Part shown: positions 3,805-52,337 of the stretch, in pieces
Layout of the letters: each line of letters begins with the position of its first letter
Numbering within the stretch: the stretch's first letter is position 1
The notes under the pieces: generated by a model
The model's database searches: none
What the model was told of the DNA's origin: nothing
Seen by the model: the letters and a program-made list of their open reading frames with translations, nothing else
Made by a program: the position numbers and the translations under genes
Virus record (IMG/VR): IMGVR_UViG_3300050139_000074
Location: 1-58,829 of that record
Direction: 5' to 3' (one strand)
DNA: 58,829 nt
Source: a virus
Taxonomy: Duplodnaviria > Caudoviricetes

Positions 3805-4181
3805 AGGAGATATTTGATAAACTGGTTAAAATTGCAAAAGAACAAATCGAATCATTTAATGATTTTTCAGACGACAGGGCGATAGTGTGGGCTGATAATG
3901 AAATTAAGCGGCTTCAATCAGAAATATCCGCCCTTAAACTCCAACTCTCAGGCCGCACCTATTGCCGTAGCGATGAGGCGGTAGAAGCGAGGTGTAAGGA
4001 GTTGGAAATCAGATGCACCAACTTCCAGATCGGTTTGCAAGCCATTGCAAGCGATGCCGAAACTCAAACATCTGGAAACTTTGGGATGAAACGACTTTCA
4101 GGGTATGCTCGGGATACATTGTCCGGCGTTGAATGGCTTGATGAGTTCGCAAAAGATGAGCCTCCTACGAGGCGCAGTTGA
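3801..4181 (+). CDS. hypothetical protein
   Basis: ATGA overlap with previous ORF. Confidence 0.6.
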   Translation: MKEIFDKLVKIAKEQIESFNDFSDDRAIVWADNEIKRLQSEISALKLQLSGRTYCRSDEAVEARCKELEIRCTNFQIGLQAIASDAETQTSGNFGMKRLSGYARDTLSGVEWLDEFAKDEPPTRRS

Positions 4182-18546: not shown

Positions 18547-18566
18547 GGGCACCCTACGGGGTGCCT
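18547..18566. terminator. hairpin at the convergence of the two transcription arms
   Basis: GGCACCC-TACG-GGGTGCC stem-loop. Confidence 0.5.
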
Positions 18567-21500
18567 CAACGCTCTACCCCATACTCACTCTTCACAATCT
18601 GTTCCCGCTTCGAGAGTACTCCAGCCTTCTTATCACGTTCCCGTTTAACTGCAGATGCCAGCTCCTGCGCCGTCACCTTGAGAGCAGGGTTCTTCTCTGA
18701 CCAATGATTCAGTTTCTCTATGGCTTCTTCCTGCCCGTCAACATCCTGCTCGGCACTCGCCGTAGCGAGTCCTTTGACGAGCGAGGCACGCCTCTGCGAG
18801 AGCGAAGTAGAGATATTTTTTAGATACCGTGACTCTTGCTGCGCCAGAGAAACGTCCATAGGATTGATGCCAGCGAGCATCAAGGCGAAGCTCCACGGAG
18901 AGACATCTTCGCTCTTCAAGAGTGTCTTGCCGCCACCCTGTACACCATTATTATACACCTCCGCCGTCTTGAACAAGTCGCGTACTGGCTTAGGAGACGT
19001 CATGCGCATGTACTCTGACAGGTCACCATCGGCCAAGGCATCCATGCCCCGAATAGTATCGGAGGCTACACCCCACGCAGGGCCGAGAATACGTCCGGCG
19101 TACCAGTTCGCCTTGGCAGTGCCGGTGAGCCCCGGAGGTGGGTCGCCTTGAATTATGTCCATCATGCCCCCGGCTCCGATGCGCCTTGATATATCAGCAC
19201 CGACAAGAGAAGGCAGACCTTTCATAAACAGGTTGGCCGTCGTATCCCCCACAGCTTCTCTGAGACCTTTCTCGAAGTCGCCTGCTACATTCCAAGGGTC
19301 GTCCGGGTCTTCAAACATGGCGGAGATGCCAGCCCACAGTGCGCTGGTCACTGAGTTAGAGAGCATCATAGCAATGGGAGTGCCGCCGGCGCCGGCAAGG
19401 GCGAAGGCCGACCCCATCTGGTAAGCCAGTTCCTGCCGTGCTTCGCTCTTCATCTGCTCCGCACCTTCCATACTAGAGAAGAAGGCCTTCACATCTTCAG
19501 GCATGCCCTCACGTGTTTCGGTTGAGTGGTAGGCTTTTCCATCCTTGGTGAGCCGGTGCTGAGATTCTCCGTTTTTTGTAATACTCATTACGTCGTAGCC
19601 GTTGGCTTCTGCGGTCGCCTTTGCATCGGAGATGCTTCGGTCGTACTCACCACCAGCAGCGTCCTTCAGGAGCTGGATCGTCTTACCTACCATGTGGAAG
19701 CGGAAGAACTGGAACTGCCCGAGGATACGCCCGGTGTTGCCTCGCCACATCTCGCCCCGGTTCTGGGAGTCGAAATTGAACAAGGTGTCATCAATGATGT
19801 CTGCGGCGTAGTCATGCGCCTTCAAGAACCCGTCCTTGGCTGCGAGGCCAAAAGATGAGATAGCTGCCGCCCGGCGCGAACCGGTCTCGGACTTCTGCAT
19901 GAAGATGCCAGCCTTATCAATTATCTTATTCATAGTCTTGGTGCCGTTGTCCGACCCTGCGATCTCATCTCCGACCATGTGCGACATGGAGAGATCTATC
20001 GCTCCCTGGTGCGAGAGCACTTTGAGCACGAGAAGTTTCTGGTTGTCCGACATGACCTTACCGGGCTCGCTAAAAGAGTTATACATCGCAGTCATCTGGG
20101 CTTCAAGAGCCTCGCGCTCTATCGGCAGTGCCTCGCGGCTCTGCTCGACCAGCTTAGATAATTTCTCTCCTATGTAGTCATTCTCTCGATCAAAGGCATC
20201 GATCTTCTCATCCGAGTACCGGCCAGCCATGTACTCTTTGGCGGAGCGGCTGTAAGATGCGAGGGATGTGCCGTACCCATAACGTGCAGCAAGTTTCGGT
20301 ATGGTGGTCATGTAAGGCTGTGCCCACTGCACGGCAAAAGTAGAAGGGCTGGATAGATACCACAGGAACGTAACCTTGCTGACAGCCTTGGTCAGCTCAT
20401 TGATCTTCTCAGTGTTCCCCGCCTTCTCATTGACGTACAGGTGATTATACAGCTTGTACATATCACGGATGTCGTCAGGGTTAGCAGGGCGAGAAGAGTC
20501 GGAGTCTCGGGCATCTATCTCGTTCCGCATGTCTCTGAACGTCTGCTCAACCTTGGAGCCATAAAGGAGTTGAGCGTTCGCAATCGAGTGGTTCCTGATG
20601 TACGTGAGGTACGAGCGCACTACATCAGTGCTGTACCCTTCTATATTCTCACGGTGGAGCTTGTTACCCTTGGTGGTGGTGCGCGGCAACGTATTAATCC
20701 TGAGACCCTCCGCCGACTGCATGAGACCCTGCAGAGCCTCGCCTGTGAAACCCTTGGCCTCCGCCGCAGCCCTGAACTTGTCGAGGAACGCCGCCGGGAT
20801 ATTAATCACATCTCTTCGCGCATCAAGACGTTCCTCAATCTTTGCATGAAGATCGTTCGTCTTATCCTGATTAATCCTGTTCACCGCATCTATCGCGGCC
20901 TTCGGACTTTCAAAGAACTCAGTCTTGACCCGGTTACCGATCTCACCGTTGGATGTCTCGTAGGTACGCACGGCGGTGTCTCCGAACCGCATAAGGGGCA
21001 TGTAGTCACCTTGCAGCTTCGGGTAGCGCATATCAACAGCTCTTACGAGTGGCGCCACGTCCTGAGCATCTTGGGAGAAGCCCGAGAGATCCTGTTTCGC
21101 GTCCAACGCCTTATTATACGCCTCCGCCTCCTTCACCACATCTTCGCCATGAACCACTTTCAACGGTGCCAGCTCCGCCTCCCGCCCTTTCTCATACATC
21201 TGGGTGACGTGATCAATCATCTCACGGTGGGCGAGGCGCTGCGCGGGGTCAAGTTTTGAGTAGAGGTTTTTGATCTCAGCCTGTGCATCTTCCAGACTCT
21301 TACCTGTAGATTCTTCAAGCCCTGCGGATTTCCAAGTCTCGGGTGTCCAGTTGTCCTTGCCGTCTGCACGCAGCTCGTAGGTCGTCGCCTTCCACACAAG
21401 ATCGGATAGAGTCTTCGCCTCTCCCTCAGTCTTAAAAGCCTTGGAGACCGCCTGCCACTTGATACCTGCGTCTCTGAGTTCCGACGACTTATACCCTGCC

Positions 21501-24500
21501 ATCTCTTTATGCTGCTGCATGAGTGCATTAAGATGCGCCTTGATCGGCGCGTAGGGCGCCTGAGACGCAGCGAGCCGGATGGATCTGTCCACAGGGAAGA
21601 GGTAACGATAAGTGGAGTCGATGATGCCTTTGACGAGCCTCTTGGCTGAGACTCCGTCTTTGAAGAAGTTGGTAACGCCTTTGGCTACCTTCTCCGAAGG
21701 GGCGGCAACATCTACCATTGAGGCGGCGAACTTCATAAATGATGCAGGCGTAGCCTGCGTGATTGGTATGTAGGGGACGGCTTGTAACCCGCCTCGCTGC
21801 TCCTCGGAGGCGATCTGTTGCGCCGCGTCTTGAGCTTCTCGGAGCGACTTAAACCCATTCACTAATTCCCCAGAATCATATAGCACGTATTCTTTACCGT
21901 CGGTTCGGATTCTAAATCCTTGAGGCTCGTTCCGCCACTGGCTGAATCCTGTAGTTGCGTCAGGGGTCTCATTGAACTTGACTCCGCCTAAGTCGGTTCT
22001 CTCAACCCCCTCGCCACCATACTTCTTGAACAGCGAGGGGAGAGTCTTGTCGTAAAGGGACTTGAGGCCTTCGCCACCTACTTTTAAATCCAACCCTGAA
22101 TACTCCAAAGGCACTGCGTCGCGGGTTGCGCGCAACTTGTCATACTCCGCTTCGGATATACTGCCATCTGTCTTTCTCAAGGCATCTCGATACGCTGTGT
22201 TGGCGGCTGTCCATGTCTTAGAATCATCGACAATCTTCTTGGCAAGTTCTTTACCTACGTTGTCCTCAACTTCCTGTACGGTTAGGTCGTGTTTAGTCAC
22301 CCTACCGTGGTTCTTCATGTCAAACACAAGCTCATAAGTCCCGTTGGAGTTTGGAGCAGCCTCAATACTGTCTACTTCCTTACTCAGATCGTACCGCTTC
22401 GCCTGCATTTCACCAGGCGTCCACGCCACACCATCGAACCCGTTCTCTTTAGCGTAGCTAAGGACTCGCTTAACCCCAAGATCATAGATCCTGTTCCGCA
22501 GGAACTGCGGCATGTTCTTCTGGTTGGCGTCACTCGGGCCTTGCATCTCTTCAACGAAGAGAATTTTTTTACCGTCAGTTTCTCTTTCATTGAACCTGAC
22601 GCGTACCACTGGGTTCTGAATATCTGAGTACTGGGAGTGTCCGTCTTGCCACCGAGAATCTTTTTGGTTCATCGCGTCGTTTTCCGCTGCCACCCTGCGA
22701 GCTTCTTCCTCAGTCAGATGCGAAGTCTGGTGCTGCTCATCGCCTACAATCCGTACGCGCCACGGCCTCCCTGCCCCTTCTTGCTTGTAGACTTCGTGAC
22801 GGCGGGTTACGTCGTTTGGAGCCGTTACAAACATCTCACGATACGACCCCTCTTTGGCACCGGGTTCGGTGTATTGGGAGAAGTGGGTTGGTGCTTTTGG
22901 TGCAGCACTTTCGCGCACTTTGTCTTTTTCTGTGCTGTTGAGTCTGCTGTAGGGTTGACCATACAGCTTCTTGGCATACGCGTCCAAGTCAGATTCGGTC
23001 AAATTCTCTACCGGAACATCCCCCAAAACCACATCCTTCAGCTCAACGGCGTTCGCCTTCAACTCATCCTGAACCTCTTTAGCTGTGAACCGTTCTCGCG
23101 ATGCGAGAAACTCTTCGAGTCCTGATGCCTTGACTTCATCAGCCTTCAGCCCCTTATCCTTCAGGATGTTCTCGAAGTGTGAGCGTGGTAGAGGTTTATC
23201 TTGGTTCACAGATTTCAAGCGTTCTGAGAACAGGTCTTCCAGCTTTGAGTACCACGGCTTCGCCTCCGGTGCTACGGAGAACTGCGTACCACCATCACCT
23301 GCGATGACGTTCTCTTTCTGGGCCTTTGCTAGCATCTCTGTGGCAGCTTTCTCGATGCGGGAATAATCCTTGAATATGCTAGCACTGAGCTGTGCGTGGT
23401 AACGTGCCGTGGTGATTGGCTTAAGAATATCCAGCACGACCTGGGCAATCTTCTCGATGAGCGTAGGGTTCTTCTCATGCAGAGCAGACCACACAGCAGG
23501 GTCGGTCATCAGATGCCCAACAGTCTCAGCCATTGCCTCGGATGGAAAGGTCTCCGCATCGTAGGATGTGCCATGCGCCTTATTATAACTATCCATGTAC
23601 TTAGAGAACTTATCAGTAGCGAGTTCTTCCTTGAACACTTTATGGAAAGCGTCGTAGACACCATCCCCACTCTGCTTCGAAGCAAATTCAATCGCATGGG
23701 TGAGCTCATGCCCAAAGATAACCAAGTGTGGATCTTTAGTCGTCGCCTTTATGTAGATGGTGTCAGGTGTACCGCCGTTGAAAAAGCCAGCAGGCGCTCC
23801 TGATACTCCGCCGGACTCTTCAAAAAGGTATACTTTTCTGCCCCAAACCGAAGCGATTTTGTTAAGTTTAGCCGCTGTATTATCATGTCCCTCAGCAGGT
23901 CGCAAGCTGCCTGGAGGAAAAGACTGTCCGGTCGTTTTCGCAAGGTCCTTCTCTGCCAGACGTAGGACTTCATCATTTGTGAGACGGTACTTTCCGTTGA
24001 CGGGTTCACTTGGATTTCCGGCGGGGTTGGGTCTGACAGGTTCACTATTATTGTTACTGGCCGCGTTATCCCCTCCGGTGGCGGTAGGCGCACCTGGTGC
24101 GCCTGTCTCAGATTGGCCTTGAAGAACTCCCCCATCGCCTACTCCTTTCTCAATTTTCGCAACAAGATCCTGCGCCCCTTGAATCTGCTGCTCCCGGTCG
24201 TAACCATCCCCGGCGGTCGCCGCAGTCTTGAAGTTCTGGATCTTGCCATTGATCTTCTCGAACGTAGCAACGTCCACGTTATTACCGGAAGAATCTTTCT
24301 CCCGCAGGGTGTAGACACCCTCGTTGGTATCATGCGTAATCACGGAATTGTCATCGACCTTGTAGACGTCAACGCCGTCTCTTGAGGCGACAGGCTTCGG
24401 GGCTACCGGTTCTTCAACCGGTGTAGCCACCACCTCACTTTCCTTAGGTTTAATCACCCACTTACCATCAGTGTCGCGCTGCACCACCTCATGCGTATCC

Positions 24501-25906
24501 GCCTTACTGCCGAGCTTCTTGGTTGCCGTCTTCTCGTCCTTGTATCCTTTATAGGCGACAAGCGGGTTCGTAATGAGTGGTGCCGGGGTGATTTCACCTG
24601 TGGTGTAATCTACGTTTTCAACAGGTGTTGATAAGTCTGTGGATAACTCCTGCGGAGCGGGAGCCTGCTCCACCGGAGCCGGGAGATCTTCGATATGCTG
24701 CGAAGCAGCAGCCTCGCCCCTCAGGGCGGAGTCCTGAGCCAGAGTATCCATCACACCTTCACCAGTAGTGGCACTCTTTGCCAAGGCAGTAAGTGCTTGA
24801 CTCTGCACTTCTTCGATGGTAGGAGGTTTCGCCCCCGCCTTCTCCTGTGCCTCGGCAGCAAGTTTGTCCATGACCGGTTTCAGCATGTCAGAGCTGGTGT
24901 CTATCGGGTTCTTTAAATTAACGTCCTGAAGAGCTTCGCTCCGCCACAGGTTAGCGGCGGAAGGATCGGCGGCATACATATGCTCGTAGAGAGCATTGAC
25001 GACCTTTGCGCGTTGCTCCGGGTTAAACTCCCCATCACTTAATACGCCTTTAAAAGCCTGTGCTGCGCCGGCTCTCTGAGCAGCGGTAAAGGCACCAAAA
25101 GCTCCGCCGGTAAGGGCTGAAGAGATCCACGCCTTGGGGTTAGCCAGCACCTCCTTCATCGGGTCGGCGTCGGGTCTTGCCCCGGTGTATTTCTCAGCAG
25201 CAGCGGTCGCCGCACCTTGGGCCTGCATGATCGGTGCATCTACGAGGACGGAGGAGCCTACGTCACCGGCCAAGGAGCGTAAAGATGGGCGCACGAGGTT
25301 CTGTGCTACGGCCTCAATACCGTGGGCCACCGCCTTCATGCCGAGCGACTCGGCCCCTGCTCGGAGCAATCCCTTCGCAGCGTGAGAAGCTGGACCCATG
25401 AGAGCCATGCCTGCACCAGAGGCAACGGCAGGGAGAATTGACGCCTGCATCGCATCGCCATCCGACATGCCGTTCGTCTTCGCACTCTCAAAGGAGCGTT
25501 CACCTTGAGACCCTGCGGCCTCCGCCGTAAGTGCTACGAGACCGGGGAGACCGGCAGCGAGGTACGGCACCATCTTGCCAACGCCTTCGGCGAGCTCTCC
25601 ACCTTGAGCGATGTAAGGGTGCGCCTCTTTGAACCCCGGAGTCATTGCATAATCTTTTTGCAACTCTTCACTCGCACGGCGTAACCCGCCGCCGAAGGTG
25701 CCGTCACCACCGAGAACACGAGAGGCGTACTGCCCAGCCTCACCTATGCCTTGACCGATGAGCCCTGCAACACGAGGAATGGCCTTGACCGTCTCTTGTG
25801 CAACCGTGGAATTACTTGGAGGGGCGCTGAGAATATCGTCGTAGGTGCCGGGAGACTTAAGCTCCGGAGCGGTGCCGTTCAGAATGTCGTCAAACATCCC
25901 GGCCAT
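18566..25906 (-). CDS. giant internal virion/ejection protein of polyvalent type
   Basis: 2446 aa, last gene of virion arm; zincin motif HELTH; YMPLMRFG (PLxRFG) motif. Confidence 0.8.
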   Translation of the reverse strand: MAGMFDDILNGTAPELKSPGTYDDILSAPPSNSTVAQETVKAIPRVAGLIGQGIGEAGQYASRVLGGDGTFGGGLRRASEELQKDYAMTPGFKEAHPYIAQGGELAEGVGKMVPYLAAGLPGLVALTAEAAGSQGERSFESAKTNGMSDGDAMQASILPAVASGAGMALMGPASHAAKGLLRAGAESLGMKAVAHGIEAVAQNLVRPSLRSLAGDVGSSVLVDAPIMQAQGAATAAAEKYTGARPDADPMKEVLANPKAWISSALTGGAFGAFTAAQRAGAAQAFKGVLSDGEFNPEQRAKVVNALYEHMYAADPSAANLWRSEALQDVNLKNPIDTSSDMLKPVMDKLAAEAQEKAGAKPPTIEEVQSQALTALAKSATTGEGVMDTLAQDSALRGEAAASQHIEDLPAPVEQAPAPQELSTDLSTPVENVDYTTGEITPAPLITNPLVAYKGYKDEKTATKKLGSKADTHEVVQRDTDGKWVIKPKESEVVATPVEEPVAPKPVASRDGVDVYKVDDNSVITHDTNEGVYTLREKDSSGNNVDVATFEKINGKIQNFKTAATAGDGYDREQQIQGAQDLVAKIEKGVGDGGVLQGQSETGAPGAPTATGGDNAASNNNSEPVRPNPAGNPSEPVNGKYRLTNDEVLRLAEKDLAKTTGQSFPPGSLRPAEGHDNTAAKLNKIASVWGRKVYLFEESGGVSGAPAGFFNGGTPDTIYIKATTKDPHLVIFGHELTHAIEFASKQSGDGVYDAFHKVFKEELATDKFSKYMDSYNKAHGTSYDAETFPSEAMAETVGHLMTDPAVWSALHEKNPTLIEKIAQVVLDILKPITTARYHAQLSASIFKDYSRIEKAATEMLAKAQKENVIAGDGGTQFSVAPEAKPWYSKLEDLFSERLKSVNQDKPLPRSHFENILKDKGLKADEVKASGLEEFLASRERFTAKEVQDELKANAVELKDVVLGDVPVENLTESDLDAYAKKLYGQPYSRLNSTEKDKVRESAAPKAPTHFSQYTEPGAKEGSYREMFVTAPNDVTRRHEVYKQEGAGRPWRVRIVGDEQHQTSHLTEEEARRVAAENDAMNQKDSRWQDGHSQYSDIQNPVVRVRFNERETDGKKILFVEEMQGPSDANQKNMPQFLRNRIYDLGVKRVLSYAKENGFDGVAWTPGEMQAKRYDLSKEVDSIEAAPNSNGTYELVFDMKNHGRVTKHDLTVQEVEDNVGKELAKKIVDDSKTWTAANTAYRDALRKTDGSISEAEYDKLRATRDAVPLEYSGLDLKVGGEGLKSLYDKTLPSLFKKYGGEGVERTDLGGVKFNETPDATTGFSQWRNEPQGFRIRTDGKEYVLYDSGELVNGFKSLREAQDAAQQIASEEQRGGLQAVPYIPITQATPASFMKFAASMVDVAAPSEKVAKGVTNFFKDGVSAKRLVKGIIDSTYRYLFPVDRSIRLAASQAPYAPIKAHLNALMQQHKEMAGYKSSELRDAGIKWQAVSKAFKTEGEAKTLSDLVWKATTYELRADGKDNWTPETWKSAGLEESTGKSLEDAQAEIKNLYSKLDPAQRLAHREMIDHVTQMYEKGREAELAPLKVVHGEDVVKEAEAYNKALDAKQDLSGFSQDAQDVAPLVRAVDMRYPKLQGDYMPLMRFGDTAVRTYETSNGEIGNRVKTEFFESPKAAIDAVNRINQDKTNDLHAKIEERLDARRDVINIPAAFLDKFRAAAEAKGFTGEALQGLMQSAEGLRINTLPRTTTKGNKLHRENIEGYSTDVVRSYLTYIRNHSIANAQLLYGSKVEQTFRDMRNEIDARDSDSSRPANPDDIRDMYKLYNHLYVNEKAGNTEKINELTKAVSKVTFLWYLSSPSTFAVQWAQPYMTTIPKLAARYGYGTSLASYSRSAKEYMAGRYSDEKIDAFDRENDYIGEKLSKLVEQSREALPIEREALEAQMTAMYNSFSEPGKVMSDNQKLLVLKVLSHQGAIDLSMSHMVGDEIAGSDNGTKTMNKIIDKAGIFMQKSETGSRRAAAISSFGLAAKDGFLKAHDYAADIIDDTLFNFDSQNRGEMWRGNTGRILGQFQFFRFHMVGKTIQLLKDAAGGEYDRSISDAKATAEANGYDVMSITKNGESQHRLTKDGKAYHSTETREGMPEDVKAFFSSMEGAEQMKSEARQELAYQMGSAFALAGAGGTPIAMMLSNSVTSALWAGISAMFEDPDDPWNVAGDFEKGLREAVGDTTANLFMKGLPSLVGADISRRIGAGGMMDIIQGDPPPGLTGTAKANWYAGRILGPAWGVASDTIRGMDALADGDLSEYMRMTSPKPVRDLFKTAEVYNNGVQGGGKTLLKSEDVSPWSFALMLAGINPMDVSLAQQESRYLKNISTSLSQRRASLVKGLATASAEQDVDGQEEAIEKLNHWSEKNPALKVTAQELASAVKRERDKKAGVLSKREQIVKSEYGVER

Positions 25907-25907
25907 G

Positions 25908-27485
25908 TTATGGTGCTCCTGTCAGAGATGCAGCCATGCGCTGCCTGATCGCTCTTTGTTTCACAGGATCGGCGATAACCGAAGGATCTCTTAACGCCTT
26001 CTGGAACTCGGCAAGAACCGCAGGATCTATGGTCTGCCCCTTCTGCCCGAAGATCGCAGGCATTGGATCAACAGGAGCCTCATCACCATACCAATGCTTC
26101 TTGCCTGCTATACCTGGGAGACCAGCGGCGACCAGAGGAACACCAGCGGCGAGGTTACGGCCAAGAGTTCCAGCGGCAAAGGCGCCAGCATCGTCACCGG
26201 GATGCGCGGCGAGGTAAGTCTCCAGAGCCTTCTGCCCTGCGAGTGCGATCTTCGTCTCGTCACCCTCTTTTTTCATGTCCAGTTTTGTCGGCTGGTTCTC
26301 GAAGTAACTGGCATGGGCATTTTGCAACCGCGCAGCGGCGCTCACCTGTAAATCATGTACTGCTGCCATACGCTCTAAACCTTGCTGAATATAATCAGGA
26401 TCTCCGGGCTTCGCAGTTACCATAGGTAACCCTGCTGCCTTCGGTGCTGGAGTATCGTCCTCTGCATCGTCCTCCTGGGCAGGTGCAGCTTTAAATAACT
26501 GCACGCCCAAACCATGTGAGGGTAGCATCGCAGGTGTAGATGCGGCGGGGGTGCTAGGAGCCACTTCAGCATTACGCCGGAGCATCCCGGTGGTCATGTT
26601 GCCATTGAAGTAGTTGGGGTCTCCGCCGAGCAGATAATTCCCGGCGTTCAGAGTTCTCGCCCCGGCATCGTTGGCGATTGCCACCGGAAGGGCTGCGCCC
26701 ACGGCGAGGCTCTGTACCAGACCCTTGGTGCCTTGAACGAGAGGAGAGTTCGAGATATTATCAAGAACGCCACCATCAGCCATACCCATCATACCAGGTG
26801 CGTTCATACGCCCTTCAGCATCAGGCTGGTTCAGCCCTTTCGGCCCTAGAGCTGTAGGCAGTCCCAGTTTCTTACGCACTGTAGTAACGATGCTATCGAA
26901 GAACTGCGGATGGAGAGCGGAGACCACTTCCTGCGGCACGACGTACTCGCCCTTCTTGGCGGCGATCATGGTGTCATCCGCAACGGCGGGGTTCGGTGTT
27001 CCAGAGATGAGTCCTGCGTTGGCGTAGCCACTGATCGTGTCCATGTGAACCGAGCCGGCAGGAGGCAGCTTCGCCGTAATGAGCGGGTCGGAGTCCATAG
27101 ATGTACTCAGGCTCGGGGTCTGAGTCAGTGAGGTGGTGAGGCCAGTGGCGCGTGGTAGTAAGGAACTACCTGTGGTTACGGCTGCATAAGGGTCAGGAGT
27201 TTTAGAACCCCCACCTGTGATATAAGGCGCTCCGCCTGCACCGACCAATGCAGTATTGAGCCCACCCTGATTAACCAGCCCTTGATGGGTAAGGCCGAAC
27301 TGCCCCGCCTGTTTGCCCACGGCGAGCTGGTTCTCACCAGCGGCTGCGATATTTTGGAGGCCGAAGTTACCCTGCTGATCGCCCACGGCGAGCTGGTTCT
27401 GGCCTTGGAGACCTACTATCTTCTCCCGCCCTGCCTGCTCGGTCGCTCGGAGATTCTGAATTAACCCTACATCGTATCCTGCCAT
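25908..27485 (-). CDS. putative internal virion/ejection protein
   Basis: Position; Gly/Ala/Gln-rich; NQLAVG repeats; GEYVVP and MADGG motifs. Confidence 0.65.
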   Translation of the reverse strand: MAGYDVGLIQNLRATEQAGREKIVGLQGQNQLAVGDQQGNFGLQNIAAAGENQLAVGKQAGQFGLTHQGLVNQGGLNTALVGAGGAPYITGGGSKTPDPYAAVTTGSSLLPRATGLTTSLTQTPSLSTSMDSDPLITAKLPPAGSVHMDTISGYANAGLISGTPNPAVADDTMIAAKKGEYVVPQEVVSALHPQFFDSIVTTVRKKLGLPTALGPKGLNQPDAEGRMNAPGMMGMADGGVLDNISNSPLVQGTKGLVQSLAVGAALPVAIANDAGARTLNAGNYLLGGDPNYFNGNMTTGMLRRNAEVAPSTPAASTPAMLPSHGLGVQLFKAAPAQEDDAEDDTPAPKAAGLPMVTAKPGDPDYIQQGLERMAAVHDLQVSAAARLQNAHASYFENQPTKLDMKKEGDETKIALAGQKALETYLAAHPGDDAGAFAAGTLGRNLAAGVPLVAAGLPGIAGKKHWYGDEAPVDPMPAIFGQKGQTIDPAVLAEFQKALRDPSVIADPVKQRAIRQRMAASLTGAP

Positions 27486-39173: not shown

Positions 39174-39401
39174 TTACTCAGTTTTAAACACATTCTTGAG
39201 TAAAGCCTTTAACTCCTTAGCGGCTCCACGCAGATCTGGATCGTCACGTTCCGCGAGTTTCTCCTTGAGGATCTCCCGCCGTAGCATGAGCAACGTCTTC
39301 ATCTTGTCAAGAAGCTGATCCCCCAGACGTTCCTGAAGCTCCTTCCGAAGCTCCTCCTCCCGCTGTTGCATTGTTGAACGGCTAAGATGTGAGTCTGTCA
39401 T
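39174..39401 (-). CDS. small helical protein between portal and scaffold
   Basis: LRGAAKELK.LL; conserved position. Confidence 0.7.
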   Translation of the reverse strand: MTDSHLSRSTMQQREEELRKELQERLGDQLLDKMKTLLMLRREILKEKLAERDDPDLRGAAKELKALLKNVFKTE

Positions 39402-39724
39402 TGCTGTGCCCCTTCCGGTAAAATGAGATTATTCCCCTTCTCATAGGTATTAAAATATTGTTGCATTTCTTCGGCGCTGTGCTGCGCCAAGTTATGAGGC
39501 GAGGCATAGAAGTTCCACTGCTCCTTCCCTGGTAGCCCCGCTATCCCCGAACCTGGAATCTGCACCCACCGACCACCTTGCTGCTCAGGAGTTGAGTACT
39601 TGCTTTGGTCGCTGAACGTCATGTGGTTGGGGTATTTGAACTCATCGCTAAAATGTTGCCCGGGCATACGCATAACCGGCAGCCCATATTTTTGCTGGTA
39701 CCCTGCCATGTCATAGTCAACCAT
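39398..39724 (-). CDS. domain probably translated as -1 frameshift extension of portal
   Basis: Frame is open upstream through the slippery site at 39772-39778; no well-spaced RBS for ATG 39724. Confidence 0.7.
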   Translation of the reverse strand: MVDYDMAGYQQKYGLPVMRMPGQHFSDEFKYPNHMTFSDQSKYSTPEQQGGRWVQIPGSGIAGLPGKEQWNFYASPHNLAQHSAEEMQQYFNTYEKGNNLILPEGAQQ

Positions 39725-39746
39725 GCCGCCATCTGCATATCCTTGC

Positions 39747-39795
39747 GGGGCTGTTTCACCAGCCCCTAAGACTTTGGGTTTGGTACTGATCCCCC
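39747..39795 (-). other. -1 programmed ribosomal frameshift signal
   Basis: SD-like GGGGGA, 11 nt, in-phase C CCA AAG, 5 nt, 7-bp hairpin GGGGCTG-GTGAAA-CAGCCCC. Confidence 0.75.
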
Positions 39796-41874
39796 AGGGG
39801 CGGTAGTCTGCCCGATCTGTTCAAGTAAGAGCTTGAGAGAGTCTCGTTGGCCGGCATCATTTACCCCTTTCCCTTTTGCAAGTGCCTCGGTAGCCTTGGC
39901 TACGAGGGCGTTGATCTTAGCGTTCTGTGTAGCAAGTATCTCCTGAGCCTGAGCCGCAGCTCTCTGGCCCTCGCCGGTGAGTTTCCCTGTCTTGGCCTGT
40001 TGCTCCTGAGTAGCGAGCTGCGCCTGCTGTGCCTGCTGTTCGTCCATCTGGGCAAATATCTTCTTGCAGTCGTCAGGACTCGCCACGTAATCAACCGGGA
40101 GGTCGCGTGATTTCAGACGGTCGAGGAGCATCCTGCGTTCGTCCACGATGGCGCGTTCCCTCGGAGTGAGTGAAGCATTGAGCTGGTCAAGAGCTGCACC
40201 ACGAACTTCTTTCGCTACCAGACTGATACTGCCCTGTGGTTGCACGTCGAAGTCACCCTTGATGTCCTTCTTCGGGTTAAACTCCATGTTCCAGGTAACC
40301 AAGGAACCAATCAAGGACTTTACAAGGCGGTCAAAGGCACGAACGTCGTCCTTCGTCACCATGTCTCCGCCCTGTTGCATCATTGACATATTGTTCGTCG
40401 TCCTGAACGCCTCCCCAAGCGGTTGAGCGTTACCCATGCGCCATGCCGGCAGGTTGCTCTCCTGATCGAAGATCTCGACATATTTATCTCTGAGTCTGAT
40501 CAGGGATTCCGTATGATTCGGCACATCATAGCACCGCACCGCAGGGTAGTTCGCCTCATTGCCGTCACCCGTACGCTGTATGGTCATGCCCCCAGAGATG
40601 TCACCAATAGCTTGCCCAGATGCGAGAAGGTCCTTATTCACTTCCTTGATGCTACTCGCGCTCTCAGCCATGTTATCCATCGTGGCGCGATCCACCGAAC
40701 AGATCTTGAGCTGCGAGTCCCTCAGATTCTCGACCTTGGCAGTACCTGTCAGCGGTCCGTCTTCGTCCTCTTCCGGGATGTAGACGTGAAACATATCAGA
40801 GATCTTCTCTCCGAACGGCGCCATGTCCGCCTTGATCGGGATGCCATCGAGCAGCCATATATCAGAGAGAATATCCTTCTGCATCGCAGACTCGGGAACC
40901 GCAACACCGATCTCAGCAAGATCCTTCGCCGGGATGTACCCATACCATCGGTAGATCTCATACTGCCGGGTCATGTCCGGAGGGGTACGCTCTGTGTGCT
41001 TCACCACCATGAGTTCTGGCTCGTATGGTCTGTACTGGTAATTCCCCTTCTGATGTTCTGAGAGGTATTCGTCGATCACATCACCGAAGAAGTCATCTCG
41101 TTTGCCGAGGTTGAGCAGGCCGTGCCGAGAGAATATCTTTCTCGTGAAGAGGCCATCCTGGTCTTCCCACCGCCTCGCGGAGAGGTCCGGATAAATATCC
41201 CACGCCTTCACCGTCTCATAGTATGGCCTCGGTACGTCTCTGGAAATTGCTACGAATTTACCCGTAGCATCAGGCTCCCACACACGCTCTCGGGTCATCT
41301 TAACAAGCGGCCCCTCAATGACTCCAAAGCCGTAGATACCAGCTCTCCTGATTGTCTTCTTGCATAGTTCCGGGTAGTCAACACCTTCGTCACAGAGCTG
41401 ATCTTCGCACTCCTGTTCCATCTTGAGCGCACGCTGCTCGGCGAAGTCCTTGACTGCTTTCTCAATGTCGTCGGATGTAGGGGGAACGAAGGGGGCAGGT
41501 GGTTGCCCCGGTTGAGTACCTTGCTGCTGCGCCTGTACCGCCTGATCCTGAAGGTTCTTAAGCACCTGCTGCAGATCCTGCTCAGAAATATTTGGCACCG
41601 AGGTACTCCCCAAGCTCCAGTTCTTCTCCTGCGCCGGGAACATCATCTCCATCATCTTCGCCACCCATCCGACGATCTTGGTGTGGGTATCCTTCGGGTA
41701 GACGCGGCTCCGCCCTTCGGGGATCTTCACCTCCGGGTCATAAATGCCTTTGTACTGCCGCAAGTTCTTGAGCCACTGGATCTCAAGCTGCCGGCGTTCT
41801 GCCTCCAGCATGGAGAACTTTGACTTGAGCCGGGTGCCGAGCTGGAGCAATTTATCTTTATCGAGAACCTGCAT
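39766..41874 (-). CDS. portal protein
   Basis: 702 aa after TerL; W...LRQY.G, G.GVIEGP, DIYPD, DN.A, WNM.F...DIKGDF. Confidence 0.88.
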   Translation of the reverse strand: MQVLDKDKLLQLGTRLKSKFSMLEAERRQLEIQWLKNLRQYKGIYDPEVKIPEGRSRVYPKDTHTKIVGWVAKMMEMMFPAQEKNWSLGSTSVPNISEQDLQQVLKNLQDQAVQAQQQGTQPGQPPAPFVPPTSDDIEKAVKDFAEQRALKMEQECEDQLCDEGVDYPELCKKTIRRAGIYGFGVIEGPLVKMTRERVWEPDATGKFVAISRDVPRPYYETVKAWDIYPDLSARRWEDQDGLFTRKIFSRHGLLNLGKRDDFFGDVIDEYLSEHQKGNYQYRPYEPELMVVKHTERTPPDMTRQYEIYRWYGYIPAKDLAEIGVAVPESAMQKDILSDIWLLDGIPIKADMAPFGEKISDMFHVYIPEEDEDGPLTGTAKVENLRDSQLKICSVDRATMDNMAESASSIKEVNKDLLASGQAIGDISGGMTIQRTGDGNEANYPAVRCYDVPNHTESLIRLRDKYVEIFDQESNLPAWRMGNAQPLGEAFRTTNNMSMMQQGGDMVTKDDVRAFDRLVKSLIGSLVTWNMEFNPKKDIKGDFDVQPQGSISLVAKEVRGAALDQLNASLTPRERAIVDERRMLLDRLKSRDLPVDYVASPDDCKKIFAQMDEQQAQQAQLATQEQQAKTGKLTGEGQRAAAQAQEILATQNAKINALVAKATEALAKGKGVNDAGQRDSLKLLLEQIGQTTAPGGSVPNPKS

Positions 41875-49533: not shown

Positions 49534-51807
49534 TTATGCCTCTTTCCACACCTGACTGCACAGCCAGTTGCTACCTGCGATTGATGTTGCAACTACAAGA
49601 ACTCTCTTACCCGCCGATGGTGTAAATGGGTTACCTGAGAACCCCGAACCGGACATATCTGTCGCCCCGCTGCCGGCGATTCCTCCGGAGATGCCTACGG
49701 TGTACCCTGATGTTGCGTGCCCAGTGAGAAGAAGGGTAAGCGACTTGGCCCCGGAGGCTGAGGAAACTGCGGGGAACCCGAGTACAATATTTGCTGTCAG
49801 CGGCCCGATACTCTGTACGTTCGCGTTCGCGTAGTTAATTGGTATCCAGCCCGATGTAGCTGTCGGATAATCAGTCTCGATGTACCCCGGCGAGACGCCG
49901 CCGACTGCTCCGGAGAATCCTGAGTAACCCGATATACCGGAACCGGAGTAACCGGAGTAACCTGATATGCCACTCCATCCTGAGAACCCGGATGTACCTA
50001 CCGCTCCGGAGAATCCTGAGAATCCAGAACCTGAGAAGCCGGAGTAACCAGAGGTGCCTGCGGCGCCGTTCGTACCTGAGTACCCGGAGAAGCCTGATGT
50101 TGCTACTCCTGTGGGCCCTGAGTACCCAGAGTACCCTGAAATTCCGGAACCTGAGTACCCGGAATATCCTGATGTGCCGGCACCCGTTGCTCCTGAGTAC
50201 CCAGAATAACCGCTTACCCCTGAGCCTGAGTACCCAGAGAATCCAGATAAACCTGACGTACCTACACCGGTTGCACCTGAGTAACCGGAGATCCCGGAAC
50301 CTGAATACCCGGAGTAGCCACTTATACCTGAGGCTCCTACGGAGCCTGAGTACCCAGATAAACCTGACGTACCTACACCAGTTGCTCCTGAGTACCCAGA
50401 ATAACCGCTTACCCCCGAGCCTGAGTACCCGGAATACCCACTGTAACCTGATTTCCCCGAAAGCCCTTGGAGACCGGTGCCGCCCGCGCCTACTGCGTTC
50501 TGTGCAACGGCGTAATCGACAAAGATCTCGTGCCCGGAGAACCCACTGGATATGTGGTAGATGCGCGAAAGTACTGCCCCTCCGCTGATGTAGTTTGTGC
50601 CTACTGGCACCGGTATGATGACGGCGTTAAGAGCTGTTGAAGGTGGTATGACACCTACGGTGTCCCACGCTGCTGTGCTATTATTATAGAGCTGAAGATC
50701 CACAATATGCGCGGATGACCCCGTGTACCAGACGTTCAACGTGATCTGGTTCAGCTCTGTTACCCCAGAGAAGTCTACTCGTATATCGAAGCCGGGAACC
50801 CCTGAGACTTCTTGCACGTCGTAGACGTTGCCATCGTTGTACGTCTGTATCGAGGTGAGATCCCCACCGTTGAGCGTCCCGGTTGTGAGCGAGACTGATC
50901 CTGCTGCGAACGTCTCTGTTACTGGTGTGAGCCCCGAGTAACCCGACTTCCCGGAGAATCCAGAATAGCCGCTGTACCCTGCGCCCGATACTCCAGAGTA
51001 TCCTGAATACCCACTTATACCTGAGCCGGAGAAACCCGAGGCTCCTACGGAGCCGGAGAACCCAGAGAACCCGGAGGTTCCACTGAACCCGGAAGTGCCT
51101 ATGCCTGAGAACCCGGAGAACCCACTGAACCCAGAAGTGCCTATACCAGAGAACCCGGAGGCTCCTGAAGCCCCATTGAGACCAGAGAACCCTGAGGTGC
51201 CAGTGCCTGAGTAACCAGAGAACCCGGAGGCTCCGGAGAAGCCGGAGTATCCCGAAGCGGTAGCGAGACCGTCGAGACCCGAGAAGCCGGAGTACCCACT
51301 TATACCTGAACCTGAGAACCCAGAGTATCCCGAGAACCCGCTTACCCCTGAACCCGAGTACCCGGAGGCTCCCGCGGAGCCGGAGTACCCAGAGAAGCCA
51401 CTCTTGCCTGAGTACCCTGACGTCCCGACCGGAAGGTCAATCGGGGGGTACAGTGTACCTTGGATATTGAACTCACTCCATGAGATGGGTGTGAGATCCC
51501 CGGTGAGTAGTGCTGCTGAGAACGGGGTGAAGTTTCTATGCACTACCTCGCACCGGTAAACGGTGAACGTCGCACCACGATCATTCGGCCACAGGTTGAC
51601 AGAGAACTCACCATTCTGGTTGGTGGTCGCTGTTATTACGGATGTGATTATTCGTTCCCGGTTGATCGCGTCCCACGTATCTGAGGGCTGGTCGTACTCA
51701 TCTGTAAGGGTGAATTTGATGAGGATATTTGCAAGCGGTGTGCCGGTGGCATCCACAAGAGGTTGGCCGGAGTTTGTTATGGTGCGTACAATTGATGGGC
51801 TTGGCAT
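49534..51807 (-). CDS. Gly-X-Ser repeat (collagen-like) fibre protein
   Basis: Two blocks of SGYSG/SGFSG repeats separated by a globular domain; CAGGAG RBS before ATG 51807. Confidence 0.8.
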   Translation of the reverse strand: MPSPSIVRTITNSGQPLVDATGTPLANILIKFTLTDEYDQPSDTWDAINRERIITSVITATTNQNGEFSVNLWPNDRGATFTVYRCEVVHRNFTPFSAALLTGDLTPISWSEFNIQGTLYPPIDLPVGTSGYSGKSGFSGYSGSAGASGYSGSGVSGFSGYSGFSGSGISGYSGFSGLDGLATASGYSGFSGASGFSGYSGTGTSGFSGLNGASGASGFSGIGTSGFSGFSGFSGIGTSGFSGTSGFSGFSGSVGASGFSGSGISGYSGYSGVSGAGYSGYSGFSGKSGYSGLTPVTETFAAGSVSLTTGTLNGGDLTSIQTYNDGNVYDVQEVSGVPGFDIRVDFSGVTELNQITLNVWYTGSSAHIVDLQLYNNSTAAWDTVGVIPPSTALNAVIIPVPVGTNYISGGAVLSRIYHISSGFSGHEIFVDYAVAQNAVGAGGTGLQGLSGKSGYSGYSGYSGSGVSGYSGYSGATGVGTSGLSGYSGSVGASGISGYSGYSGSGISGYSGATGVGTSGLSGFSGYSGSGVSGYSGYSGATGAGTSGYSGYSGSGISGYSGYSGPTGVATSGFSGYSGTNGAAGTSGYSGFSGSGFSGFSGAVGTSGFSGWSGISGYSGYSGSGISGYSGFSGAVGGVSPGYIETDYPTATSGWIPINYANANVQSIGPLTANIVLGFPAVSSASGAKSLTLLLTGHATSGYTVGISGGIAGSGATDMSGSGFSGNPFTPSAGKRVLVVATSIAGSNWLCSQVWKEA

Positions 51808-51842
51808 GACATACTCCTGGCCGATGTTCGTCGGCAAAGGGG

Positions 51843-52337
51843 TTACAGATTTATTTGGATATTCACCATGTTCGCCGGTCCGCTGCCCTTTTCTTCCTTC
51901 GGCTCAAGCCGGCCAAGGCGCGTGACGATCTTGAAAGCATCCAGTTTCTGGGCAAAAGGGATGTTGCTGTGCAACGCCCCGTCGAGTTCTGGTAACCAAT
52001 CTTCTGCGATCATCTCACATTTCTTACTGAAGATGAGCCCCTCATCACGCACTACTTTCTGCGCTGCGGAGAGTTCTCGGCGGAACGCTTCCGACTGCTT
52101 TAGGGTCTCATATTGGCTAAGTGTGAGCGAGTATTTAAAGAGCAGTTCTTCCTCAGTCTGAAGATTGAGTGCCAACTCCATTGGCAGGCGCACCGGCCAC
52201 GGAGAGAGCTTTTCATGTACTGGAACGAGATCCAATACCAGAGGCGGAGAAGCCTCTGGGAGACCGAGATGCTCTGCGAGCAACGCATCGTCGTAACCGA
52301 ATCCAAGATCTTCATTTTCAAATGCTAAGGAGGCCAT
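51843..52337 (-). CDS. putative terminase small subunit
   Basis: First gene of late arm; helical core, C-terminal VNIQINL beta tail. Confidence 0.6.
   Translation of the reverse strand: MASLAFENEDLGFGYDDALLAEHLGLPEASPPLVLDLVPVHEKLSPWPVRLPMELALNLQTEEELLFKYSLTLSQYETLKQSEAFRRELSAAQKVVRDEGLIFSKKCEMIAEDWLPELDGALHSNIPFAQKLDAFKIVTRLGRLEPKEEKGSGPANMVNIQINL

Follow-up and report, generated by a model that had tools for sequence, protein, structure and literature searches.

The portal gene of an uncultured virus of the Caudoviricetes (IMG/VR record IMGVR_UViG_3300050139_000074; its whole stretch of 58,829 nucleotides (nt) was analysed and is called the window) probably directs the synthesis of two proteins: a portal of 702 amino acids (aa) and, by programmed -1 ribosomal frameshifting just ahead of the stop codon, a minor isoform of 825 aa. 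Most ribosomes would stop at TAG 39768-39766 and release the 702-aa portal, and some would slip by -1 on the heptamer C CCA AAG, the tRNA-Pro re-pairing from CCA to CCC and the tRNA-Lys from AAG to AAA. A GC hairpin 5 nt downstream is the likely stimulator of the slip, to which a GGGGGA 11 nt upstream may add. Reading 124 more codons after the slip would produce a long form consisting of the portal, a flexible linker of 18 residues that ends in GYADGG, and a domain of about 100 aa belonging to an unnamed family. Mixed rings would then bear a few copies of the domain on the C-terminal face that points into the capsid, a location proposed by analogy with P22, in which portal C-termini point inward (PMC4992974). 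An isoform of 825 rather than 702 aa had been put forward in a preliminary description of this DNA. It is supported by the signals, by a relative in which portal and domain are fused in frame, by purifying selection on the domain and by the linkage of the domain to portals elsewhere; the slip itself, its rate, the place of the domain in the virion and its function are inferences.

Candidate recoding signals at the end of the portal gene

The features of the portal 3' end, all on the minus strand, are the following.

39766..41874, minus strand: portal gene, 0-frame open reading frame (ORF) of 702 aa, assigned from PHROG matches and relatives
39790..39795, minus strand: Shine-Dalgarno-like GGGGGA, 11 nt before the heptamer, possible 5' stimulator
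39772..39781, minus strand: slippery run A AAC CCA AAG, from reading of the sequence
39766..39768, minus strand: 0-frame stop codon TAG of the 702-aa portal, from reading of the sequence
39747..39766, minus strand: hairpin GGGGCTG/GTGAAA/CAGCCCC, 7-bp GC stem and 6-nt loop, predicted fold
39725..39772, minus strand: -1-frame linker, 16 codons upstream of the ATG, ending in GYADGG (39742-39725)
39398..39724, minus strand: 108-aa ORF with the unnamed domain, domain core at about 39718-39416

The portal ORF ends with AAC CCA AAG TCT TAG. The main heptamer, C CCA AAG at 39778-39772, has the X XXY YYZ phase, and A AAC CCA (39781-39775) is in phase too. The signals announced in the preliminary description, namely the in-phase heptamer two codons before the stop, the hairpin at 5 nt and GGGGGA at 11 nt, were all found where it had placed them. 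The hairpin begins at the last base of the stop codon, with 5 nt (39771-39767) between heptamer and stem. Its predicted energy is -14.6 kcal/mol alone (z -3.9) and -17.5 kcal/mol with a 4-bp lower stem (z -3.8), in which 39771-39768 are paired with 39743-39740 and which covers an AAGGA; 1 of 200 shuffles folded as well as the hairpin region. GGGGGA may act as a 5' stimulator of the slip; the genes of this phage use ribosome-binding sites (RBS) of the GGAGG/GGGGG type. Regarding the heptamer, C_CC.A_AA.G ranks by efficiency among the top three -1 motifs in Escherichia coli, with 54% frameshifting when followed by the IS3 pseudoknot and about 0.3% without a stimulator (PMC4066793). All parts of the putative cassette thus stand at canonical spacings.

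The -1 frame is open from a stop at 39823-39821 down to 39398, that is, for 124 codons past the slip, and reading of the frame bears out the earlier statement that it runs through the 108-aa ORF 39724..39398. The stop codon of this ORF (TGA, 39400-39398) overlaps the ATG of the next gene (39401-39399). It had also been claimed that ATG 39724 lacks a well-spaced RBS, and this holds when it is set beside the portal, capsid, scaffold-like and small neighbour genes, which have strong, well-spaced, purine-rich sites of the GGAGG/GGGGG type: its sole RBS candidate is the AAGGA 15 nt upstream, paired inside the lower stem of the hairpin. The methionine encoded at 39724 did not arise as a start codon, since it is also found in fused homologues.

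A scan for terminators and promoters called nothing at the hairpin, which is not called an intrinsic terminator because no T-tail follows it. Rfam gave no match over 39300-40000, no tRNA gene was found in the phage, and none of the listed runs containing the window sequence is an RNA run.

Rarity of the site and integrity of the sequence

In-phase heptamers number 54 in the 18,731 codons of 71 ORFs, only four of them of the X XXA AAG type, and about 0.05 heptamers are expected in the stretch of about 18 codons where a slip fuses the two frames. Among 300 XXXYYYN sites (both strands, any frame), the one with the most stable hairpin 3-9 nt downstream is the site at the portal end.

The site is identical, with zero indels, in contigs of three runs from three studies of peat metagenomes. 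Contig X1, which may be the source sample, spans the whole stretch at a depth of 135; X2 spans 39657-39849 at a depth of 2.8 and X3 spans 39749-39899 at a depth of 2.6. Assembly slip is an unlikely cause of the out-of-frame state and, because of this contig evidence together with the selection on the domain described below, so is an error or a dead gene in general.

An in-frame relative and selection on the domain

The nearest relative found, L161, is a metagenome contig of 1707 bp that encodes in a single frame a portal C-terminal part homologous to that of the window, an 18-residue linker, the octapeptide PQGYADGG and the domain (78% identity). Its downstream layout is that of the window, with an ATGA-coupled small gene of 71 aa followed by a scaffold-like gene. 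When the two DNAs are compared, the flanks align but the linker of about 54 nt does not, and over it the window falls short of L161 by exactly 1 nt; a -1 slip would give the window a linker as long as that of L161. No significant fold is predicted in the latter (z -0.10).

PQGYADGG, which lies upstream of ATG 39724, is identical in the window and L161, and all nucleotide differences within it are synonymous, a pattern suggestive of translation of the -1 frame already ahead of the ATG. Within the domain, synonymous sites are saturated (65.8 of 67.8 differ) and dN, the non-synonymous divergence, is 0.15. With L080 as outgroup, 73 of 114 sites are the same in all three sequences and 11 are different in all; private changes number 3 in the window, 12 in L161 and 15 in L080. 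These comparisons indicate that the window domain is old, constrained and under purifying selection; given the saturated synonymous sites, the low dN and the few private changes, it is no decaying remnant.

Linkage of the domain to portals in other loci

Domain loci were classified for L081-L182 minus L162 (n=101), a set that includes near-duplicates and in which L082 repeats the contig of L080. A protein was tagged as a portal when phmmer matched it to a seed portal at E<=1e-5. PHROGs or Pfam served in turn to check the seeds: 9 of 10 proteins were portals, two of them P22-type by Pfam, as were 3 of 10 upstream neighbours (one weakly) and 3 of 7 in a second set. Portal linkage was seen in 36 of the 101 loci and involves several portal families.

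In-frame portal-domain fusion: 16 loci
Portal directly upstream, domain out of frame without its own start: 8 loci
Portal upstream, domain gene with its own start: 12 loci, 9 of them starting no more than 3 nt from the portal stop
No tagged portal: 65 loci; four tested neighbours matched phrog_3287, 'virion structural protein'

The in-frame fusions include P22-type portals in L091 and L094 (PF16510, 3.6e-174 and 8.9e-123, respectively) as well as portals of phrog_1216. Separate domain genes stand right behind portals in L088, L098, L118, L123, L129, L132, L142, L164 and L168.

Several of the out-of-frame loci resemble the window in having a shift-prone sequence at the portal end. L154 has A AAA AAG in phase two codons before the stop, with the domain in the -1 frame, and L136 has a run of A7 where its in-frame relative L109 has A8. 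In L112, L114, L127, L147, L148 and L149, the portal ends with AGG GGG CCT CTT TAA C and the domain follows in the +1 frame (site near locus position 3985-4000; 752-772 in the contig copy of L149). These six contigs represent three distinct sequences whose portals are 91-96% identical; a 34-nt block is invariant between flanks rich in indels, and L147-149 have no start codon ahead of the domain. The signal of release factor 2 consists of a CUU_U shift site before the stop and a GG_GGG Shine-Dalgarno-like stimulator, according to a review of recoding (PMC5009743), and the +1 layout of the six contigs (GG GGG, CTT T, stop) matches it.

Conversely, 11 of 13 in-frame phrog_1216 fusions (L105, L104, L106, L109, L111, L113, L116, L117, L120, L121 and L140) carry A AAA AAG in phase at 42-45 nt from the domain, ahead of a DYD motif. 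A slip by -1 there would meet a stop after a single codon (GCC TGA), and GGAGGAG is found a few bases before the heptamer; in L105, no significant fold was found downstream of A AAA AAG. By analogy with dnaX, this layout would yield a short, domain-less portal. That 11 of 13 fusions keep the heptamer suggests that both the long and the short portal are wanted.

In a tree of the domain with 81 rows, built from matches of at least 75 residues after removal of identical rows and of rows containing stops, the window groups with L161 and with the giant protein of L082 in a well-supported clade. Because the label for an in-frame portal needs at least 6 changes on supported branches, portal-domain fusions arose several times.

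Alternative explanations

Several findings weigh against programmed frameshifting in the window. The efficiency of the heptamer is an E. coli value, which may not hold for the tRNA-Lys set of the host of this peat phage, and the phage itself carries no tRNA genes. The domain works as a free protein elsewhere, with many stand-alone members of 100-190 aa; P0039, P0022, P0069, P0091 and P0106 start right at the domain, and 12 loci have a separate domain gene with its own start behind the portal. Given these free-standing members and separate genes, initiation or re-initiation at ATG 39724 is plausible and could coexist with frameshifting. The synonymous-only changes in PQGYADGG could all sit on the L161 branch. 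No relative with the same cassette was found, 77 related portal loci being without the domain and L161 having it in frame. As for the other loci, the out-of-frame cases outside the window rest on contig sequence rather than reads, the one-A difference between L136 and L109 could be a sequencing error, and conservation of the +1 cassette is weak evidence since the portals are 91-96% identical.

It is unlikely, though worth serious consideration, that the window carries a split gene, in which a former fusion underwent a 1-nt change and the 108-aa protein is now made independently from ATG 39724, where ribosomes would either initiate weakly or re-initiate after terminating at the portal stop, 42 nt upstream. 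The protein would be held in the virion non-covalently, if at all, and the heptamer and hairpin would be there by chance, or the hairpin for mRNA stability. Such a state would agree with the commonness of free-standing family members, some beginning at the domain boundary, with the nine loci named above that have domain genes directly behind portals, with the selection on the domain, which implies that it is expressed somehow, and with the coupling of the domain ORF stop to the next ATG as in ordinary genes. However, ATG 39724 has no well-spaced RBS in a genome that otherwise uses strong ones, its AAGGA is inside the lower stem of the hairpin, and the free-standing genes start 0-3 nt from the portal stop, not 42 nt away across a hairpin of -14.6 kcal/mol. 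Independent synthesis also leaves unexplained why a top heptamer should lie in phase in an 18-codon stretch with the best hairpin of 300 sites, and why PQGYADGG is conserved upstream of the ATG.

A dead or erroneous frameshift, that is, a sequencing or assembly error in, or recent inactivation of, a true in-frame fusion, is very improbable. All 12 subunits would then bear the domain, or the domain would be a decaying remnant. The in-frame state does exist in L161, from which the window differs in length by a single nucleotide, and there are runs of C, A and G within the linker; yet the three runs from three studies are identical without indels, one of them at depth 135, and the linker, with about 54 nt unalignable, is no 1-nt variant of that of L161. 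Moreover, the lineages are old, as shown by the saturated synonymous sites, yet private changes number 3 in the window against 12 in L161 at the 114 sites, and the 0-frame portal ends where the portals of its relatives end. Equally improbable is a role of the hairpin unrelated to decoding, as the 3' end of a transcript or as an element of RNA processing or stability. Such elements are often found where this hairpin starts, at the last base of a stop codon, but it has no T-tail and drew no call in the terminator scan, the scaffold-like and capsid genes follow at once on its strand without an intervening promoter-like site, and the in-frame relative L161 has no comparable structure there.

The portal gene and its head module

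The ORF at 39766..41874 is assigned as the portal by its profile matches and its position in the head module. It matches phrog_332 at 1.6e-11 and phrog_1216 at 1.5e-4 in PHROGs, with no Pfam match at E 0.01, and the gene order is large terminase, portal, small gene, scaffold-like gene and major capsid. The virus record is rated as 97% complete. Cultured relatives of this portal are distant, the best being that of Pseudomonas phage Rollin with 32% identity. IMG/VR holds 77 related portal loci, with identities of up to 61%; these portals have variable tails, end at the same place as the 702-aa ORF and have a homologue of the 75-aa gene behind them. The 702-aa portal agrees with its IMG/VR relatives in length and C-terminal tail.

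None of the 77 related loci encodes a C-terminal extension, and the domain was not found anywhere in five related genomes, four of them complete, in a search that recovered 5 of 5 control carriers. On this evidence, the domain is an accessory acquisition of the window lineage. A search with the portal C-terminus gave 167 matches, and among the 120 listed, of 415-763 aa, there was no further in-frame fusion in this portal family. The window portal compared by phmmer with the 152 listed domain carriers gave no match.

The gene that follows the domain ORF is the following.

39174..39401, minus strand: small head-module gene of 75 aa, its start overlapping the domain ORF stop in a coupling ATGA

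In relatives, the homologue of this small gene overlaps the portal 3' end in a reading by eye. In L003, L005, L006, L008, L010, L011 and L012, it seems, again by eye, to start in the low-complexity tail of the portal in the +1 frame, and the same seven loci have a conserved L.ERL stretch upstream of the portal stop.

The domain family

Searched with HMMER, 1.84 billion representatives yielded 868 clusters with the domain at E<=1e-3, of which 183 reached E<=1e-10. Many members are free-standing proteins of 100-190 aa, and in others the domain is one module of a larger protein of up to 4230 aa. An alignment of 82 members (A1), with the window domain as its reference row, has 12 invariant positions (Y20, H40, D43, K46, P48, H50, F53, S54, S57, G66, G67 and W69), all of which are present in the window domain. 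The invariant His40, Asp43 and His50 hint at metal binding. Since the domain also occurs in giant proteins that share segments with two large ORFs of the window (see below), a virion-internal accessory or an ejected module may be guessed at as its role.

No described family could be attached to the domain. Pfam and PHROGs matched no family consistently in the 82 members, found nothing informative in 9 large domain carriers and, in 10 mid-size fused proteins, found only short tape-measure-like stretches in one. The MuF profiles PF04233 and PF06152 matched neither the window protein nor any of the 82 members. A sequence profile search of the PDB with the domain gave 0 matches at E<=1, and the ESM Atlas gave no usable match, the model of the domain itself having a pLDDT (predicted model confidence) of 0.41. 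A word-based search for homologues of similar length returned the window's own protein alone, and tblastn of the window domain, the L105 C-terminus and P0043 against 50,697 cultured-phage records returned no match. The result is a large uncharacterised domain family with a strong portal link, previously undescribed within the literature searched.

The closest homologues of the window domain are embedded in large proteins and flanked by GY[AES][ED]GG, a motif that occurs in 10 of 152 listed representatives, every one a large fused protein. The preliminary description had suggested that the extension might be cleaved at this motif and ejected. Cleavage sites shared with a giant protein are unsupported, as GY.[EDQ]GG is not in the window's other called genes; it occurs in the window only in the domain linker and at one place outside called genes. 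Scans of the head module with Pfam and PHROGs turned up no protease gene. The GY[AES][ED]GG beside the window domain looks like part of a recurring linker of the [RFY]AEGG type: in L091 and L094, where it lies between the P22-type portal and the domain, and in P0004, P0005, P0126 and L143, a short segment made up of [RFY]AEGG and then YLVGEKGPE.IVP-like residues stands before the domain and matches 'tape measure' PHROGs over about 40 residues.

Two domain proteins are related to other genes of the window. P0002 (locus L080) shares a 270-residue segment containing an HExxH-like motif with the 2446-aa ORF at 18566-25906 (minus strand), whose C-terminal third matches phrog_11358 (a profile of 3431 positions). 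P0042 shares a segment with the neighbouring 525-aa ORF at 25908-27485 (minus strand). In both P0002 and P0042, the portal-linked domain belongs to the same polypeptide as the shared segment.

The domain is also present in 20 loci of bacterial genomes. In L164 (Inquilinus ginsengisoli strain 584), L168 (Sphingomonas asaccharolytica NBRC 15499) and L166, the domain gene stands right behind a portal, the three portals belonging to three different PHROG families; these are presumably prophages, and could be culturable.

Comparison with known recoding systems

The end of the window portal gene resembles E. coli dnaX (tau/gamma) in its signals, which in dnaX are an X XXA AAG heptamer with a stem-loop on the 3' side and a Shine-Dalgarno-like element on the 5' side; as in dnaX, the two products would share an N-terminal body and differ by a C-terminal domain. 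Whereas dnaX encodes a polymerase subunit, the window gene encodes a virion portal; its heptamer is C CCA AAG in place of A AAA AAG, and it is the long form that would need the shift. The reversed dnaX forms of other bacteria have a parallel among the portal loci, with the window and L154 out of frame and L161 and L105 in frame. The transposase genes of IS3 and IS911 likewise combine this class of motif with a structure on its 3' side, but the portal site has a simple predicted hairpin, with no pseudoknot predicted, and lies in structural genes rather than transposase ORFs.

Among phages, T7 gene 10A/10B and lambda gpG/gpGT use a -1 slip near the gene end to make a minor, C-terminally extended isoform in a fixed ratio (PMC5009743). 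As proposed for the portal, these are late -1 slips in a phage structural or assembly gene; those genes, however, encode a capsid protein and a tail chaperone. Full-text literature searches, judged by their listings, found no paper describing frameshifting in a portal gene, and 'portal' occurs 0 times in the 300,000 characters of the recoding review that were covered (PMC5009743). The nearest functional analogue is SPP1 gp7/MuF, which is encoded immediately downstream of the portal, just as the domain adjoins or fuses with portals. The likeness is one of gene position only, no sequence relation having been found, and the domain, unlike gp7/MuF, is about 100 aa long and also occurs inside giant proteins. 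The literature searches found no description of MuF attachment by recoding.

Wider meaning

A portal is regarded as a homo-dodecamer, built from the product of a single gene. If the proposed reading is true, a long isoform made by frameshifting breaks the symmetry of the portal on purpose and constitutes a covalent means to place a small, counted number of accessory domains at the vertex where DNA enters and exits. We tentatively extend this to a general strategy, in which a recoded mix of long and short portals, with an inner-face domain in few copies, would have evolved several times in at least three portal families. Four routes might lead to such a mix: a -1 slip that adds the domain (window, L154), a dnaX-like slip that removes it (11 of 13 phrog_1216 fusions), a +1 shift like that of release factor 2 (six contigs) and a coupled gene. 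Under this generalization, which may well prove too broad, the domain would be a new portal-anchored, virion-internal module, maybe metal-binding, that is delivered with the genome and appears interchangeable with modules of giant ejection-type proteins. The case also shows that trans-frame extensions of portals in metagenomic phages will escape gene callers.

A second candidate of this kind lies elsewhere in the window. The 164-aa ORF at 51843..52337 (minus strand) contains, 13 codons ahead of its stop, A AAG GGC in phase, from which the -1 frame runs for 783 codons and enters the 767-aa tail-fibre ORF (49534..51837; phrog_5073/6320), whose listed TTG start has no RBS. The region 49534-52337 may thus contain a second trans-frame fusion or a mis-called start.

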